55,033 nucleotides of DNA. Source: Candidatus Saccharimonadales bacterium (GTDB lineage Bacteria; Patescibacteriota; Saccharimonadia; Saccharimonadales; JACDBH01). The translations under genes were made by a program, and so were the position numbers. Where the stretch lies: NCBI GenBank assembly GCA_049292975.1, contig JBATRZ010000062.1, positions 1-55,033 on the forward strand, in the 5' to 3' direction. The notes under the pieces are model-generated. The model did no database searches and was not told the origin of the DNA. It saw only the letters and a list, made by a program, of their open reading frames with translations. Numbering within the stretch: position 1 is the stretch's first letter; the number at the start of each line of letters is the position of its first letter. This document shows, piece after piece, positions 5,622 to 55,033 of the stretch.

Positions 5622-5644
5622 TACAGATTACTGATTAGAGAATC
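5622..5644. repeat. Left inverted-repeat arm bracketing four-helix-bundle gene 1
   Basis: TACAGATTACTGATTAGAGAATC matches the reverse complement of 6016-6038 at 18 of 23 positions. It overlaps the stop codon. Confidence 0.6.
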
Positions 5645-6018
5645 TGCTTCACCCTCCTGTTCTGCTTATTAGCTTTTTGTAATCCTGCAAGTATTCTTTG
5701 TGCCTCATCAATTTGAAGCAATGTTTTTACACTTAGCTCTTCGCTTATGTAGCCAATGCCTTTTGCGATCAGGTACTGGCACTCGAGTTCTGTCAGAGAA
5801 CCTTTTGCTATCGCATAGAACTGATCTTTTTCCTTTGGACCAAATCTACCAAAACCTTCTGCAATATTTGAGCAAACAGACACCGCTGCTCTACGCATTT
5901 GACTTACCAAGCCGAATAACTCAGATTTTGGAAATTCTTTCGTTATCTCGTAAGTAAGTAGCGAAATTTCATAGGTCTTTTGCCATACGACCAAGTCTTT
6001 AAAGTTAGCTGCAGCCAT
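5635..6018 (-). CDS. Four helix bundle protein (23S rRNA intervening-sequence protein family)
   Basis: FKDLVVWQKTYEISLLTYEITKEFPKSELFGLVSQMRRAAVSVCSNIAEGFGR...AKGSLTELECQ is the hallmark of the PF05635/TIGR02436 family. GC content is lower than in the flanks. Confidence 0.85.
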   Translation of the reverse strand: MAAANFKDLVVWQKTYEISLLTYEITKEFPKSELFGLVSQMRRAAVSVCSNIAEGFGRFGPKEKDQFYAIAKGSLTELECQYLIAKGIGYISEELSVKTLLQIDEAQRILAGLQKANKQNRRVKQIL

Positions 6019-23442: not shown

Positions 23443-23790
23443 ATGCCAATTATCAAATCAGCGAAGAAGCGCGTCAAGCAAACCCGCAAAGCGACCGTCC
23501 GCAACGCCCGTACCAAGCGTTCTTTACGCAGCTCGCTCAAGGGCTTTTCAAAAAAGCCAAGCGCAACGTCAAAGTCCAAGGCCGAGAGCAACCTGGACAA
23601 GGCCGCCAAGAAGGGCCTGGTCCACAAGAACAAGGTCGCCCGCAAGAAGCGTCAGCTCGCAGCCAGCGCCAAAAAGGCCGGCGTCAAGCCCGCTGCCGCC
23701 AAGAAGGCCGTAGCCAAGAAAGCGCCTGCCAAGAAGGCAGCCCCAGCTAAGAAACCAGCCGCCAAAAAGGCTCCTGCCAAGAAAAAATAA
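23443..23790 (+). CDS. rpsT: 30S ribosomal protein S20 with Lys/Ala/Pro-rich C-terminal tail
   Basis: MPIIKSAKKRVKQTRKATVRNARTKRSLRS is the bS20 N-terminus. The C-terminal 40 aa are AKKA/PAKK repeats. Confidence 0.9.
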   Translation: MPIIKSAKKRVKQTRKATVRNARTKRSLRSSLKGFSKKPSATSKSKAESNLDKAAKKGLVHKNKVARKKRQLAASAKKAGVKPAAAKKAVAKKAPAKKAAPAKKPAAKKAPAKKK

Positions 23791-23829
23791 ACAGCCTTCG
23801 GCTAATATTTGATACTTGATATCTAATAA

Positions 23830-23853
23830 ACCGCCCCAACAGGGGCGGTTCTT
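23830..23853 (+). terminator. Rho-independent terminator of rpsT
   Basis: ACCGCCCC-AACA-GGGGCGGT followed by a T-rich tail. Confidence 0.7.
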
Positions 23854-23871
23854 AATAATCCGTAAAATCCC

Positions 23872-23925
23872 CATCTGTAAAAGGTCAGACCCTTGGGTCT
23901 CCTTCCTTGGGTCTCCTTCAAGCCA
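23872..23925. repeat. Diverged inverted-orientation copy of the ATCTGTTAAGGGTCAGACCCTT element, with its own 14-nt tandem word
   Basis: CATCTGTAAAAGGTCAGACCCTT, then GGGTCTCCTTCCTT GGGTCTCCTTCAAG. Confidence 0.6.
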
Positions 23926-24145
23926 ACTCTCAATTCCCTCCCGAATTCATTTTGGGAATTGAGGGCGAACCCTTGCGGTCGTTCTTGCTGCGCGTCAGCC
24001 CGGCCAATTATTTCAATTGTGTTTGCAGTGGGCGCGAGTTCTTTTGCAAACTTTTCTGTCTTACCCCAAGCAACGGGTTGCTTGGGGACCCCGCTGTCGA
24101 TACAGAAAAGTATGGACTTGCTTCTTCGTCTGAAGAAGTTATTGG

Positions 24146-25095: not shown

Positions 25096-25458
25096 TCATT
25101 TGCCATTTTTCAGTGTAGAAATGATTTTCTGCAAGATGAAAAGCAGCTGGCTTACCTCATCTATTTCATTATGACAGGAAAAATTCTCATTGGCTTCCTG
25201 TAGGAGCCTTAGCCAGTAGCGCGTTTCTGCAGCTTCTTTCTTGGCTATGAATATTTTATTTCTAAAATCCAAGCGGGATGCGGCATTGTTTGCCTCTGTA
25301 TAATTGGCCCCGATACCGGTTGCAGAACGGATTAATTGGGTCTTGATGATTCTGTTCTCTGAGGTTTCTGGCAAAGGTTTCACAAGCCGTATGATCTGAA
25401 GCGAGAACTTAATTGTACGCTCCTCTAATTCTTTGGATCTGCCTTGTGAATTGTCCAT
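25096..25458 (-). CDS. Four helix bundle protein (23S rRNA intervening-sequence protein family)
   Basis: ...FSLQIIRLVKPLPETSENRIIKTQLIRSATGIGANYTEANNAASRLDFRNKIFIAKKEAAETRYWL fits the PF05635/TIGR02436 pattern. The gene is low-GC. Confidence 0.85.
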   Translation of the reverse strand: MDNSQGRSKELEERTIKFSLQIIRLVKPLPETSENRIIKTQLIRSATGIGANYTEANNAASRLDFRNKIFIAKKEAAETRYWLRLLQEANENFSCHNEIDEVSQLLFILQKIISTLKNGK

Positions 25459-51966: not shown

Positions 51967-52758
51967 ATGAAGAAACTCCTATTTGTGCTTGGCATCCTCT
52001 TTCTATTGGCCGCCCTGGTTTTTGGCGGCCTGAAGTTCTACGACGTGTTCTTTACCGAAGAACCAGAGGACATGAGCGCTGCTAACCAGAATGCCAAAGA
52101 AAAGCAGGAAGAGCAGCAGCCCGTCCAAGAGAACCAGCCGGTTTTCGGCAAGTCCAAGCATTCGCTCGATGACCCGGCCAGCATTTGGGTGGTGGTCAAC
52201 AAAACCCGGCCGCTCAACCCCAAGAATTACGTGCCGGCCGACCGCGTTTTTCCTAGCGTAACCCTGCGCGTACCGGGCAACGAATCGATGCAGATCCGCG
52301 CCGATATCTCACACGCCGTCAAAGCATTATTCGACGGTGCCAAGGCTGCCGGACATAGCCTGAAGTTCTCAAGCGGCTACCGGTCTTATAGCTACCAGGT
52401 TAATTTGTATAGCGGCTACGTTAAGTCAATCGGTCAGGCCGAAGCCGACAAGCAATCTGCCCGCCCCGGCCATTCCGAGCACCAAACCGGCCTGTCACTA
52501 GACGTCTGCGATAACGCCGGCTGCGACCTCGTACAATCATTCGGACAGACTGCTATGGGCCAGTGGGTCGCCGCTCATGCCCATGAATACGGCTTTATCA
52601 TCCGTTATCCCGAAGGCAAGACAGCTATCACCGGGTACGAATACGAGCCGTGGCATTTGCGCTATGTCGGCACCGAGCTGGCCGGCGAAATGCGCGGAGC
52701 AAACATTCAGACACTAGAGGAATTCTTCGGCCTCCCCGCCGCCCCTGATTATCTATAA
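51967..52758 (+). CDS. D-alanyl-D-alanine carboxypeptidase, VanY/M15B family
   Basis: Signal anchor, then SGYRSY..Q, ARPGHSEHQTGLSLDV and EPWHLRYVG zinc-peptidase motifs. Confidence 0.85.
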   Translation: MKKLLFVLGILFLLAALVFGGLKFYDVFFTEEPEDMSAANQNAKEKQEEQQPVQENQPVFGKSKHSLDDPASIWVVVNKTRPLNPKNYVPADRVFPSVTLRVPGNESMQIRADISHAVKALFDGAKAAGHSLKFSSGYRSYSYQVNLYSGYVKSIGQAEADKQSARPGHSEHQTGLSLDVCDNAGCDLVQSFGQTAMGQWVAAHAHEYGFIIRYPEGKTAITGYEYEPWHLRYVGTELAGEMRGANIQTLEEFFGLPAAPDYL

Positions 52759-53180
52759 CTTTTGTTAGTTCTACGCTTTTTAAAGCGTGGATGTATATAA
52801 ACGATGTAGATGCAAAACAGAAAAGTTCCTGCGGCAAGCATGATTATAGTTATAAGCACCACAAACAAACTATTTCCCAGGGCATCAGATTCTATAGCAT
52901 CAAAACGAGGCCAGATTGAACTCACGAGTGGATAGAATAACAGAGCTGAAGAAAACGCTAAAAACTTTGCATACGAGTTCAAGCCATCTTTTTGATAGAG
53001 CCGTTTCCCTACCTTCCCTCCCGGAAAGCATACCCGTGCCAACCGGCCTAAGGTCTGTGCAGCTAAGAAGCTAGCGACAGAGATGAGCGTAAGGTATATA
53101 GCTAAGTAAATCAGCAACATCGTTACGTCGAACCACCACGGAAAATCCCATACAATCGCTTCTGCGAATATTTGCAGCAT
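52749..53180 (-). CDS. Small polytopic membrane protein (AT-rich)
   Basis: About four predicted TM helices. Start set at ATG 53180 because the upstream part of the track ORF runs through a repeat element and a terminator hairpin. Confidence 0.45.
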   Translation of the reverse strand: MLQIFAEAIVWDFPWWFDVTMLLIYLAIYLTLISVASFLAAQTLGRLARVCFPGGKVGKRLYQKDGLNSYAKFLAFSSALLFYPLVSSIWPRFDAIESDALGNSLFVVLITIIMLAAGTFLFCIYIVYIHPRFKKRRTNKSYR

Positions 53181-53202
53181 AATACCGATAATTATCGCAC
53201 AG

Positions 53203-53250
53203 AATTGAAGGAATTGAAGGGTCTGACCCTTAACAGATAGGGTTTTTGCG
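53203..53250. repeat. Direct repeat, copy 1 (GAATTGAAG words plus GGGTCTGACCC palindrome plus TAACAGATAG)
   Basis: 53208-53240 is identical over 33 nt to 54481-54513. The flanks are also similar, about 45 of 48 positions overall. Confidence 0.9.
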
Positions 53251-53260
53251 TTTTTTTGGG

Positions 53261-53282
53261 AAAAAAGGGTCCGACCCTTTTT
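53261..53282. terminator. Bidirectional terminator-like hairpin
   Basis: AAAAAAGGG-TCCGA-CCCTTTTT. Confidence 0.6.
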
Positions 53283-53658
53283 GTGCACAATACATAAGCT
53301 TTTCTTCCGATTTACCACATACCCCAGATATGCGCATAAAAAAGCAGTCGAGATCTTACGCTAATTGTTTTTAGGATAAACCCGAGCACAATTGCTGCTA
53401 ATGTTATAGAGCTAAGATGATTGCACTAGGTAACATACCTGAACCGAGCCAGCTCATATTAAGAACCGGTCTGGCTAAATTGTCTCACCTGTTTAGTATT
53501 TATCCCTCTTGATTAACGCCAAAGTTGCAAATAATGCGATAAATATTGCTGCCAAAGCCTGCATTAAACCCGTGAATATAAAAAGTTTCAGCGGTAATAC
53601 TAATATCACTATGCACAAACAAAGCACAAGCTTTGTTGAAATCCCAATCTGTTACATC

Positions 53659-54414
53659 TCATTTTATAAAGGTTATGCTCTTGAGTAATTGGATGGCCTG
53701 CAATACATCTGCCTGCTCAAAATACGACTCATCGTTGCCCGTCGGCATAACGCTAATATGTATTGGGTACTTATTCGGTGAATCATATATCTTCTCAAGT
53801 TCCTCGTCATGCTGATAATGATCAAAGCTGACTGTTTTCCCAGATACTTTATCGAATTTGCTTTCGATTACTTTGTCATTCATGAGTGTAATAATAAATT
53901 CTGGTTCAGCGCTACCTTCCGGTCTTGGGGAATACTTTGCCCATACTACGTACACACTTGAAACTGACCCGTCCTTAAGCGTTATATTTGAACTAATGAT
54001 TTCCTTTTTTAGTATTTCGTAAGTAGCACAAGTGTTCTGAGAAGAGTGAGGCTGTTGTCTCTCGTAGTCTTCCGTGCACCCGCTCCCCCTACCTCCGGCA
54101 TTAGTCCAGTATGCGACTATTTCTAACCCGCTGGGCGCTTTAAATATTTTGCCAAAATCAATAAAACCGCCCTTGGGTTCGTCATAATCTTTTTCTACCC
54201 AACCCGTTGGGAGATCTGCCCTGATACTCAACTTATTTGCAAGTGGCTTATTCTGATCCAGAGATTCGGATGTCAATTCTTGCGTATCAGTATCTGATTT
54301 AGTGCCTGTATTACTTCGGCTAAATATATACCACCCTGTTAGAGAGAGAATCCCGATAACCACCACTGCTATCATGACCTCCGGCACACTAAAACCATAC
54401 TTATCGCTCCGCAT
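53659..54414 (-). CDS. Type IV pilin-like protein (prepilin-type N-terminal cleavage/methylation signal)
   Basis: MRSDKYG/FSVPEVMIAVVVIGILSLTGWYIF has G-F at the cleavage site, Glu at +5 and a hydrophobic helix. The gene is AT-rich. Confidence 0.7.
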   Translation of the reverse strand: MRSDKYGFSVPEVMIAVVVIGILSLTGWYIFSRSNTGTKSDTDTQELTSESLDQNKPLANKLSIRADLPTGWVEKDYDEPKGGFIDFGKIFKAPSGLEIVAYWTNAGGRGSGCTEDYERQQPHSSQNTCATYEILKKEIISSNITLKDGSVSSVYVVWAKYSPRPEGSAEPEFIITLMNDKVIESKFDKVSGKTVSFDHYQHDEELEKIYDSPNKYPIHISVMPTGNDESYFEQADVLQAIQLLKSITFIK

Positions 54415-54420
54415 GGAATC

Positions 54421-54449
54421 ATTATAAGCATTAGGAATTTATACTGCAA
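54421..54449 (-). promoter_or_regulatory. Promoter of the pilin-like gene, implying a leaderless mRNA
   Basis: On the minus strand: TTGCAG, a 17-nt spacer, TATAAT, then only 6 nt (GATTCC) before the ATG at 54414. No Shine-Dalgarno sequence. Confidence 0.55.
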
Positions 54450-54475
54450 TGTAATTTAGATATAGAATTAAAGGG

Positions 54476-54523
54476 AATTAAAGGAATTGAAGGGTCTGAC
54501 CCTTAACAGATAGAGATTTTGCG
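54476..54523. repeat. Direct repeat, copy 2
   Basis: AAGGAATTGAAGGGTCTGACCCTTAACAGATAG is identical to copy 1, 1273 bp away in the same orientation. Confidence 0.9.
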
Positions 54524-54532
54524 AGTTTTACT

Positions 54533-55033
54533 TTATAGAGTGTTCCGGCCGTCGTCTACCGGAATCTTCGTGTAGGTGTTCACGATATTCTGGATACGTT
54601 CCGTTTGGGCTTCTACGGTCGTGCCCAGCTGTGACTTGGCCATGTAGTCCTGGGCTTCGTACAGCGGCATGATGCGGAAGTTCTTGCGGGCCAGTAGTTT
54701 TCCGGCGGCCTTCTCTTCGGCCGTCCACTCGTAGTGCTGGTAAAACGGCAGGCACGTAGAATCTACGAATTTTTTGGTTGGTATGTCATATGTAAAGGCC
54801 GCCACGCAACCGGTCAGGCCGGTAGTCTCCAGTTGGGCGTTCAGGAAGTTGCCAAGGCCGTACCAGACGATGGTCTCATTGCCGCCCTGCCCTGCCAAGC
54901 GCTTGACGGGCTGCAGCGTGTGCGTGCCATGCCCCAATATGATATCGGCGCCCAGGTCTGACAACTTTTGTGACTGGGCATCCTGCGCGGCGTTCAAAAC
55001 TTCGGAATATTCGGTACCCCAGCGCATACTGAC
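54533..55033 (-). CDS. CapA-family (metallophosphatase-like) protein, C-terminal part; N-terminus beyond window
   Basis: ...GADIILGHGTHTLQPV...WYGLGNFL is typical of CapA/PGA_cap family proteins. The ORF is open at the window end. Confidence 0.7.
   Translation of the reverse strand, partial: VSMRWGTEYSEVLNAAQDAQSQKLSDLGADIILGHGTHTLQPVKRLAGQGGNETIVWYGLGNFLNAQLETTGLTGCVAAFTYDIPTKKFVDSTCLPFYQHYEWTAEEKAAGKLLARKNFRIMPLYEAQDYMAKSQLGTTVEAQTERIQNIVNTYTKIPVDDGRNTL

Follow-up and report, generated by a model that had tools for sequence, protein, structure and literature searches.

A REP-like palindromic element that may mark unit boundaries in an AT-rich, pilin-bearing islet of a Candidatus Saccharimonadales bacterium

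Repetitive extragenic palindromic (REP) sequences and bacterial interspersed mosaic elements (BIMEs) of proteobacteria are short extragenic palindromes with a conserved asymmetric head, located behind the 3' ends of genes. The pilE/pilS loci of Neisseria have conserved flanking repeats (the Sma/Cla repeat), and the genomes of Saccharibacteria belong to the ~1-Mb class. The DNA analysed here is a stretch of 55,033 nt from a Candidatus Saccharimonadales bacterium (GenBank assembly GCA_049292975.1, contig JBATRZ010000062.1, positions 1 to 55,033 of the forward strand), designated as the window. Close to its end, two direct repeats, R1 and R2, bracket a type IV pilin-like gene inside an AT-rich islet. 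These repeats are read here, with roughly even confidence, as two copies of a species-specific, REP-like palindromic boundary element and not as the termini of a mobile cassette. At the level of contigs, the evidence speaks against mobility of the bracketed segment. Saccharibacteria attach to host bacteria, and pilins mediate the binding to the host (PMC11623550), so the entry and wiring of new pilin-like genes bears on host range.

A repeat search in the last 5 kb of the window revealed one strong direct repeat, the pair 53202-53256 (R1) and 54475-54529 (R2), with a length of 55 nt, 91% identity, and spacing of 1273 nt. The exact core is 33 nt long (53208-53240 = 54481-54513), and the edges of the repeat have diverged. 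A 31-nt pattern of the core had exactly two matches in the 55-kb window and none in 100 dinucleotide-preserving shuffles. The pair had been described with the same spacing and the same 33-nt identity in an earlier reading made from the letters alone (the sequence-only reading), and both searches bear it out. In every deep metagenome run, the core forms its own 33-nt unitig. Both copies are oriented along the minus strand, on which the order is PGA_cap stop codon (54533-54535), R2, tandem words, promoter, gene of the 251-aa pilin-like protein, a small open reading frame (ORF), a terminator-like palindrome, R1, and the gene of a 143-aa membrane protein. R2 begins 3 nt past the PGA_cap stop codon and holds a conserved 34-nt motif, CGYAAAAWCYCYATCTGTWAARGGTCAGACCCTT, at 54490-54523. 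R1 lies directly past the terminator-like palindrome of the pilin unit, with the motif at 53217-53250. The motif closes in a perfect 15-nt palindrome of 7+1+7 nt, AAGGGTC(A)GACCCTT, located at 54490-54504 in R2 and at 53217-53231 in R1. In the minus-strand direction, R2 reads AAAACTCGCAAAATCTCTATCTGTT-AAGGGTCAGACCCTT-CAATTCCTTTAATTC and continues into further words of 9-10 nt (CCCTTTAATT and so on). The core AAGGGTCNGACCCTT is common to both repeats and to the terminator-like palindrome at 53261-53282.

The 34-nt motif has a third copy, diverged in sequence (CGTAAAATCCCCATCTGTAAAAGGTCAGACCCTT), at 23861-23894 on the plus strand, 10 nt past the rpsT terminator hairpin. It sits in the 355-nt convergent rpsT/holA spacer, 30 kb from R1 and R2, and has no cargo. 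The site was first matched, at 23880-23894, by a relaxed palindrome search. The 22-nt pattern ATCTGTWAARGGTCAGACCCTT had three matches in the window against 0.00 expected, and the left flank CGYAAAAWCYCYATCTGT had three matches, at the same three sites, against 0.39 expected; GGTCAGACC is exclusive to these sites. In the three-way alignment, the conserved 34-nt block stops exactly at the right edge of the palindrome. The third copy is conserved in three strain contigs (L025, L026, and L029; assemblies and contigs are designated L here, and sequencing runs X). All three solid copies are placed about 3-10 nt behind a stop codon or terminator and are oriented as the upstream unit, which is terminated by the PGA_cap stop codon at R2, by the terminator of the pilin unit at R1, and by the rpsT terminator at the third copy. 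An oriented palindrome behind a gene 3' end, as in REP sequences, was thus found in three of three cases. No plausible gene lies downstream of the third copy, and two libraries in which both neighbours, rpsT and holA, are covered had no RNA at 23816-24035. A small RNA or promoter at this site was considered and dropped, as the spacer lies between two convergent terminators and has no RNA coverage.

The element shares with REP/BIME the short palindrome, the conserved asymmetric head, the extragenic location behind gene 3' ends, the orientation tied to the neighbouring unit, and the character of a local hot spot of slippage and rearrangement; possibly it also shares the inverted pair at one site. 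It appears to differ in its very low copy number: the exact core occurs twice per genome, and the 64 kb formed by the window and 9.4 kb beyond it in assembly L001 hold three solid copies, the count outside these 64 kb covering close copies. It also lacks a GTAG-type head, no RAYT transposase was seen in the window, its tandem words start within the palindrome arm, and it resides in a candidate phyla radiation (CPR) genome of the ~1-Mb class. The possibility that the repeats are simply a common intergenic terminator or promoter motif, raised together with the sequence-only reading, agrees with the facts in part: a diverged copy does stand behind rpsT and cassette-level variation is lacking, but the motif is rare and does not stand upstream of many genes.

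The element would consist of the approximately 34 conserved bases and of short tandem words, placed behind the end of a transcription unit in the orientation of that unit. The islet would then be composed of two consecutive, separately promoted, leaderless genes, each headed by a copy of the element, and the pilin unit would be bracketed as a by-product, because it is the inner one of the two. The role of the element may be that of a unit boundary, with a weak hairpin or terminator for the upstream unit and probably with a protein-binding palindrome before the next promoter, perhaps acting as an insulator. The promoter and terminator scan recognized the R2 palindrome as terminator-like on the minus strand, with a 6-bp stem and the tail CAATTCCTTT. 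A contig of run X28, a library that may contain DNA, continues through this palindrome.

In all copies, the tandem words after the palindrome have the same starting base, GAC|CCTT, but they differ in sequence. R1 has CCTTCAATT twice, R2 has three variants of 9-10 nt, and the third site has two perfect 14-nt words CCTTGGGTCTCCTT at 23891-23918 on the plus strand, with their start in the right arm placed as in R1 and R2. In R2, the words (CCTTCAATT, CCTTTAATT, CCCTTTAATT, and onward) take up 31 nt, 54454-54484, between the palindrome and the -35 box of the pilin-like gene. A common allele with a deletion of exactly these 31 nt was found in runs X18, X37, X38, and X39, where it coexists with the full-length form. 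The spacer between the R1 palindrome and the -10 element of the 143-aa gene has three alleles, namely the window type, one longer by 22 nt (L002), and one longer by 30 nt (L004); positions 11089-11160 of L002 and 4028-4100 of L004 correspond to 53197-53216 of the window. The -10 elements are intact across all length alleles, and the distance from the palindrome centre to the ATG is about 44, 66, or 74 nt at R1 and 83 or 52 nt at R2. R1 of L002 bears a left flank of the R2 type, CGCAAAATCTCT, which suggests gene conversion between R1 and R2 as the best account. Gene conversion would hold the islet copies identical over 33 nt, and the hairpin-forming palindrome may promote replication slippage, from which the tandem words and the length alleles of 22-31 nt would arise.

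Mobility of the bracketed segment was followed in sequencing depth and in strain comparison. In run X1, the 33-nt unitig had a depth of 78.3 against 43.2, 37.8, and 39.2 of the neighbouring contigs. A depth of about twice that of the flanks was found in six runs (X1, X2, X3, X5, X9, and X13), so the core is present exactly twice per genome; the ratio was lower in X15 (about 1.4x), X14 (about 1.3x), and X18 (about 1x). The depth of the bracketed segment equals that of the flanks. No further copies at 80% likeness or more were found in three deep runs, from which only the four expected contigs were recovered; the known third copy is missed at this likeness, and the census therefore excludes close copies only. 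The same architecture is present in five spanning assemblies (L001, L003, L004, L030, and the window) with at least 98% identity, and the segment is present in all 20 DNA or unlabelled metagenome runs examined. Four runs picked solely because they hold the flank also hold the segment. An apparent strain difference in L002 was rejected as a 100-N scaffold gap at copy 2. No empty site or presence/absence polymorphism was found in the five spanning assemblies or the 20 runs, the k = 31 contigs of which cannot phase a 33-nt repeat, and neither gain, loss, nor reordering of a cassette was seen there. The absence of an integrase from the window, stated in the sequence-only reading, is confirmed, as Pfam scans of the ~45 window proteins found no integrase, transposase, or resolvase. 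No recombinase is in the gene table of L001, the 9.4 kb beyond the window end included; these 9.4 kb hold housekeeping genes and no further site. No third site accompanies the 143-aa gene, which is just as rich in AT and stands outside the repeats. With two core copies per genome, the tandem cassette array proposed from the letters is not supported.

Flanking direct repeats (55 nt with a 33-nt exact core) are present as in integrated elements, and no integrase or excisionase was found, either between the repeats (1273 nt) or in the 64 kb as a whole. Inverted repeats that would bound the segment, as in a transposon or a miniature inverted-repeat transposable element (MITE), were not found, and at 55 nt the repeat greatly exceeds the length of a target duplication. 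Around pilin-family genes in four other genomes, no repeat flanks were found.

The AT-rich accessory islet is 1.8 kb long (52759-54532) and lies between the stop codons of VanY (plus strand) and PGA_cap (minus strand). Its G+C content is 40.6% compared with 52.2% of the window. The G+C content at third codon positions (GC3) is 0.42 (z = -2.5) in the pilin-like gene and 0.44 (z = -2.3) in the 143-aa gene, against 0.61 +/- 0.076 in the 47 other window genes, and the AT-rich segment noted earlier is borne out in overall composition and in GC3. The PGA_cap protein beside the repeat has relatives with 60-67% identity, only in metagenome-assembled genomes (MAGs) of Candidatus Saccharimonadales/Saccharibacteria, and the runs that hold the sequence are metagenomes from sludge, wastewater, bioreactor, and sediment. 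The window is accordingly assigned to an uncultured TM7/CPR bacterium from activated sludge. In six related genomes, PGA_cap and VanY lie next to each other in convergent orientation. About 10-25 nt separate the two genes in the related Saccharimonadales L010 and L013, and the same junction is occupied in L011, L012, L014, and L015 by unrelated inserts of 0.45-2.4 kb, coding for an RDD and a transglutaminase-like protein, an FHA/DnaJ-like protein, and unknowns. As the junction is empty or differently loaded among relatives, it is a hot spot in the order. Pilin-family genes elsewhere are within 0.02-0.06 of the local G+C content; the gene studied here is 0.11 below its surroundings, unlike the family elsewhere, and this agrees with a relative of lower G+C content as the donor. 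At this hot-spot convergent junction, the islet is an insertion specific to the lineage and foreign in composition, and it is fixed in all sampled populations. From the modular acquisition and shuffling supposed at first, the insertion at the junction and the deviating composition remain, but no shuffling among strains was found. No match was obtained when the islet was searched with blastn against phage and plasmid collections.

At the same junction in L015 (11032-11228), a partial duplication of the final 49 nt of PGA_cap surrounds two palindromes GTACAAGGTYSRACCTTGTAC: 17 nt at 11032-48 are repeated exactly at 11139-55, and 39 nt are repeated with 79% identity. Palindromes GTACAAGGTTCGACCTTGTAC and a 14-nt tandem word are present at this boundary of L015. 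A pilin-like family member was also seen at 13027-13698 of L010, about 1.8 kb from the empty PGA_cap/VanY junction, and the family thus tends toward this neighbourhood.

Several points weigh against the boundary-element reading. The palindrome of R2 forms an energetically ordinary RNA hairpin (-5.9 kcal/mol, z = -0.19), and the conserved non-palindromic 19 nt to the left of it are unexplained by a simple terminator role. There are three, perhaps four, copies in 64 kb, and the motif family rests on one diverged extra copy. A possible fourth copy, inverted and degenerate, faces the third at about 23940-23985 and is statistically weak, with a local score of 20 that was equalled by 23 of 1440 control tiles. 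An nhmmer model of the motif had no matches in the loci of related species. The contig L006 (Logan contig, SRR35975717, 1-1284) is a circular permutation of the 1273-nt unit, in the order cassette end, hybrid repeat, and cassette start, with an end overlap of 11 nt. Because the 33-nt core is longer than k = 31, no junction-specific word exists and L006 is indistinguishable from an assembly walk; it may be such a walk, or a real circle or tandem copy. In X33, contigs run straight through the repeat at low coverage. Finally, a perfect 33-nt core around a foreign segment would also be left behind by a recombination-mediated insertion.

The pilin unit may have been inserted in the past, either through homology or in a site-mediated manner. 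In that case, the repeats would be the scar of an old and now fixed event, a somewhat unlikely explanation, in which the unit (repeat, pilin-like gene, small ORF, and terminator) entered as circular or transformed DNA. A single crossover at a pre-existing element before the 143-aa gene would have created attL/attR-like direct repeats, performed either by RecA, with the exchange inside the 33-nt core (Campbell type), or by a site-specific recombinase whose gene lies elsewhere. Such an origin is compatible with the boundary-element reading. The locus is similar to attL/attR or Campbell insertions in its direct repeat of tens of bp with an identical core and diverged edges, in the AT-rich, foreign-looking segment with G+C content 0.11 below its surroundings, in the conserved gene 3' end, and in the variable, hot-spot locus with different cargo in relatives. 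An insertion is also favoured by L015, where the PGA_cap 3' end was partly duplicated independently and is accompanied by palindromes at this position, and by the end-repeat-start order of L006, as expected of a circle or tandem copy; moreover, natural competence is known from cultivated Saccharibacteria (PMC10187176). However, there is no integrase or other recombinase in 64 kb, and no pre-insertion, empty-site, or alternative-cargo allele was found in the strains and runs examined. The second foreign-looking gene, that of the 143-aa protein, is equally AT-rich and lies outside the repeats, so the whole islet looks foreign, and the third motif copy has no insert. L006 is not separable from an assembly walk, and the low-coverage contigs of X33 traverse the repeat.

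The pilin-like gene (53659-54414, minus strand) codes for a 251-aa prepilin-type protein with the N-terminus G|FSVPE, a helix, an S/T-rich linker, a PsbP_2-like beta-rich domain, and two conserved Cys. It scored 21.5 bits against the cut-off of 16.3 with NCBIfam TIGR02532 (IV_pilin_GFxxxE), by which the type IV pilin-like gene of the sequence-only reading is upheld, and 18.1 with Pfam N_methyl, below the cut-off of 21.2. The prepilin cleavage/methylation motif G|FxxxE is present as KYG|FSVPE, whose G7 and F8 show (nearly) no variation across the aligned family. Judged by its N-terminal sequence, the protein is of the prepilin-type class; its assembly into pili is predicted only. A word-indexed search with the protein returned itself only, and a full HMMER search returned 74 distant relatives of about 250 aa. 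Features of the family alignment are G|F(S/G/T)xxE, a hydrophobic helix, a polar linker, a domain with YPxxW and GGKGGxC...C, and a C-terminal ILKSF helix. Pfam PsbP_2 was matched by 18 of 25 family members, and the named members are all Saccharibacteria. In the AlphaFold2 (AF2) model, with a mean predicted local distance difference test (pLDDT) of 68, helix 10-35 (pLDDT about 88-90) is followed by a disordered linker (38-60) and a beta-rich domain, a layout that corresponds to the overall build of type IV pilins. The model had no significant match in a PDB fold search, where PsbP was ninth with E = 2. No pilus machinery gene was found among the ~45 window proteins by Pfam scans, and PADLOC and PHROGs gave nothing significant for the three islet ORFs.

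As in the pilE/pilS loci of Neisseria, a pilin-type gene is flanked here by short conserved repeats able to support recombination. Unlike in Neisseria, there are no silent pilin copies, as the 55-kb window has one family member and so does L001 with its additional 9.4 kb. The repeat is not pilin-specific, as copies of it also stand before a membrane-protein gene and in an empty spacer. In cultivated Saccharibacteria (Nanosynbacter lyticus TM7x), many fast-diverging pilins mediate host binding, and many of them were missed by sequence searches (PMC11623550). The 251-aa protein resembles those pilins in its prepilin-type N-terminus, hydrophobic helix, and rapidly diverging globular part (PMC11623550), and it differs in the PsbP_2-like domain of its family and in that its gene is not part of any pilus-machinery locus in the window. 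Inside the gene, at 54022-54157, four linked single-nucleotide polymorphisms (SNPs) form an allelic bubble; both forms occur in X37, X38, and X39, which means that at least two pilin alleles coexist in populations, and the variant was seen in X28, too.

The promoter-like site of the pilin-like gene is at 54421-54449 on the minus strand and consists of TTGCAG (54449-54444), 17 nt, TATAAT (54426-54421), and 6 nt before the ATG. It was not listed by the scan because its -35 box matches 3 of 6 bases only. A leaderless layout, in which a -10-like hexamer precedes the ATG by 6-9 nt and a Shine-Dalgarno sequence is lacking, was recognized at 9 or more of the 49 window genes (for example, at 2656, 8848, 27743, 39241, 46406, and 47331) and is therefore a native style and not a peculiarity of a cassette. 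From these layouts, leaderless mRNAs appear common in this genome. The leaderless promoter that the sequence-only reading ascribed to the pilin-like gene can accordingly be read as a promoter-like sequence but has no special status. The putative 44-codon hydrophobic ORF with a GTG start (53493-53627, minus strand) has no homologues and no family match, and RNA contigs cover it jointly with the 3' end of the pilin-like gene (53475-53933). It is followed by about 210 nt without an ORF and by the terminator-like palindrome A6-GGGTCCGACCC-T5 at 53261-53282, possible on both strands. The bidirectional terminator proposed earlier is thus present as a palindrome, but its fold of -9.1 kcal/mol is unremarkable (z = -0.8) and it was not listed by the terminator scan. 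The gene of the 143-aa multi-pass membrane protein (52749-53180, minus strand) lies outside the repeat-bracketed segment, and its end overlaps the VanY stop codon by 10 nt. No relatives of this protein were found outside the species. Its extended -10 element TGCGATAAT (53191-53199, minus strand) is located 10 nt before the ATG and is kept in all strains, while the spacer to R1 varies. The use of the TTCAAT words of R1 as a -35 box, as had been supposed, is doubtful, because 22-30 extra nt separate the words from the conserved TGCGATAAT in L002 and L004. Contigs of X27, a true metatranscriptome, cover both islet genes (52934-53145 and 53475-54355) and leave the flanking genes uncovered, and an RNA contig of X26 (52718-53185) stops 5 nt before the ATG of the 143-aa gene.

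A shared operator is a further explanation, in which the palindrome would be bound by a dimeric transcription factor that co-regulates both islet genes and would have been duplicated since both promoters need the site; it is considered rather improbable. The identical perfect 15-nt palindrome before two promoters, the X27 RNA contigs that cover both islet genes and leave out the flanking ones, and a CRP/FNR-type regulator encoded in the window would agree with it. The alleles of 22, 30, and 31 nt are near whole helical turns, so the face of the helix would be kept, a weak point with three cases. Against an operator stand the third copy between convergent terminators with no gene or RNA downstream, the asymmetric conservation (19 nt on the left side of the palindrome, nothing on its right side), the variable distance from palindrome to promoter, and the lack of an adjacent regulator.

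It is improbable, in our opinion, that the 34-nt motif is the recognition site of an unseen trans-acting recombination system of Saccharimonadales, which would load foreign surface-protein genes into convergent junctions. If so, R2 and R1 would be the product sites of one event, the rpsT/holA copy would be an unoccupied or scarred site, and the duplications that start at GAC|CCTT would be footprints of staggered cleavage at the palindrome. An active cassette platform, with the repeats as integron-like or other recombination sites that shuffle surface-protein genes and with more cassettes beyond the window, is largely refuted and has a very low probability: co-oriented small genes are indeed separated by co-oriented palindromic sites at a variable locus, as in integrons, and L006 is circularly permuted, but there are exactly two sites per genome, the 9.4 kb past the window end are housekeeping genes with no site, no integrase (IntI included) was found, either among the ~45 window proteins or in the gene table of L001, the genes are separately promoted, the depth of the cassette equals that of the flanks, strains do not vary, and the simple 15-nt palindrome is not the 57-141-nt R''-L''/L'-R' structure of attC with its two inverted core-site pairs, its GTTAAGG being one base (the last) off the GTTRRRY core.

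Taken as two copies of a boundary element, the repeats belong to a descriptive picture of genome architecture with no sign of active shuffling, which is real, fairly ordinary, and not surprising. The locus provides an example of an acquired, transcribed pilin-like gene with a PsbP-like domain at an order-wide hot-spot junction, headed by a reusable palindromic boundary element, and it defines a Saccharibacteria-specific pilin-like family of about 250 aa, mostly annotated as hypothetical. Its importance would rise only if the palindrome were a recombination or regulatory site; there is a small residual chance that it marks a new recombination site.

Some other known types of repeats were considered and dropped. 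A clustered regularly interspaced short palindromic repeat (CRISPR) does not fit two copies and a spacing of 1273 nt, a DNA uptake sequence would not be so rare, dif and parS sites have dissimilar sequences, and a sigma-54 promoter has another spacing. Rfam gave nothing at the gathering threshold in the window, and matches in the islet were at chance level only. A tRNA or transfer-messenger RNA (tmRNA) gene as an integration target was not found. The palindrome with its flanks had no matches in a genome contig collection or in a viral contig collection, and four matches in a metagenome contig collection were taken as unrelated since their flanks differ. Five copies of a 32-nt palindromic repeat, ATACCATTAAGGGTCTGACCTTTAATGGTGTA, are present in one of these four, the unrelated Joint Genome Institute (JGI) metagenome contig L018 (31-62, 5741-5772, 5827-5858, 6358-6389, and 6573-6604), with only the core AAGGGTCTGACC in common, and one extended palindrome similar to this repeat is in L019. 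At loose ends of X1, X9, and X38 at 53217 and 54490 of the window, low-depth contigs match AAGGGTCTGACCCTTAACA. These have GC-rich flanks and come from other organisms of the same sludge samples; those of X1 and X9 have two inverted copies 33 nt apart, and X38 has loose ends only.

In the rpsT/holA spacer, a perfect 10-bp inverted repeat, CTCAATTCCC...GGGAATTGAG, is present at 23929-23963 beside the weak inverted motif copy and holds the same CAATTCC word as the tandem words of the repeat. The ribosomal protein S20 gene before this spacer (23701-23783) specifies a Lys/Ala-rich C-terminal tail through imperfect repeats of 15-18 nt, and several Logan contigs break precisely at its end. Two 23S_rRNA_IVP (four-helix-bundle) genes, at 5635-6018 and 25096-25458, are the other strong outliers with low GC3 (0.375 and 0.463, respectively), and they were probably also acquired.

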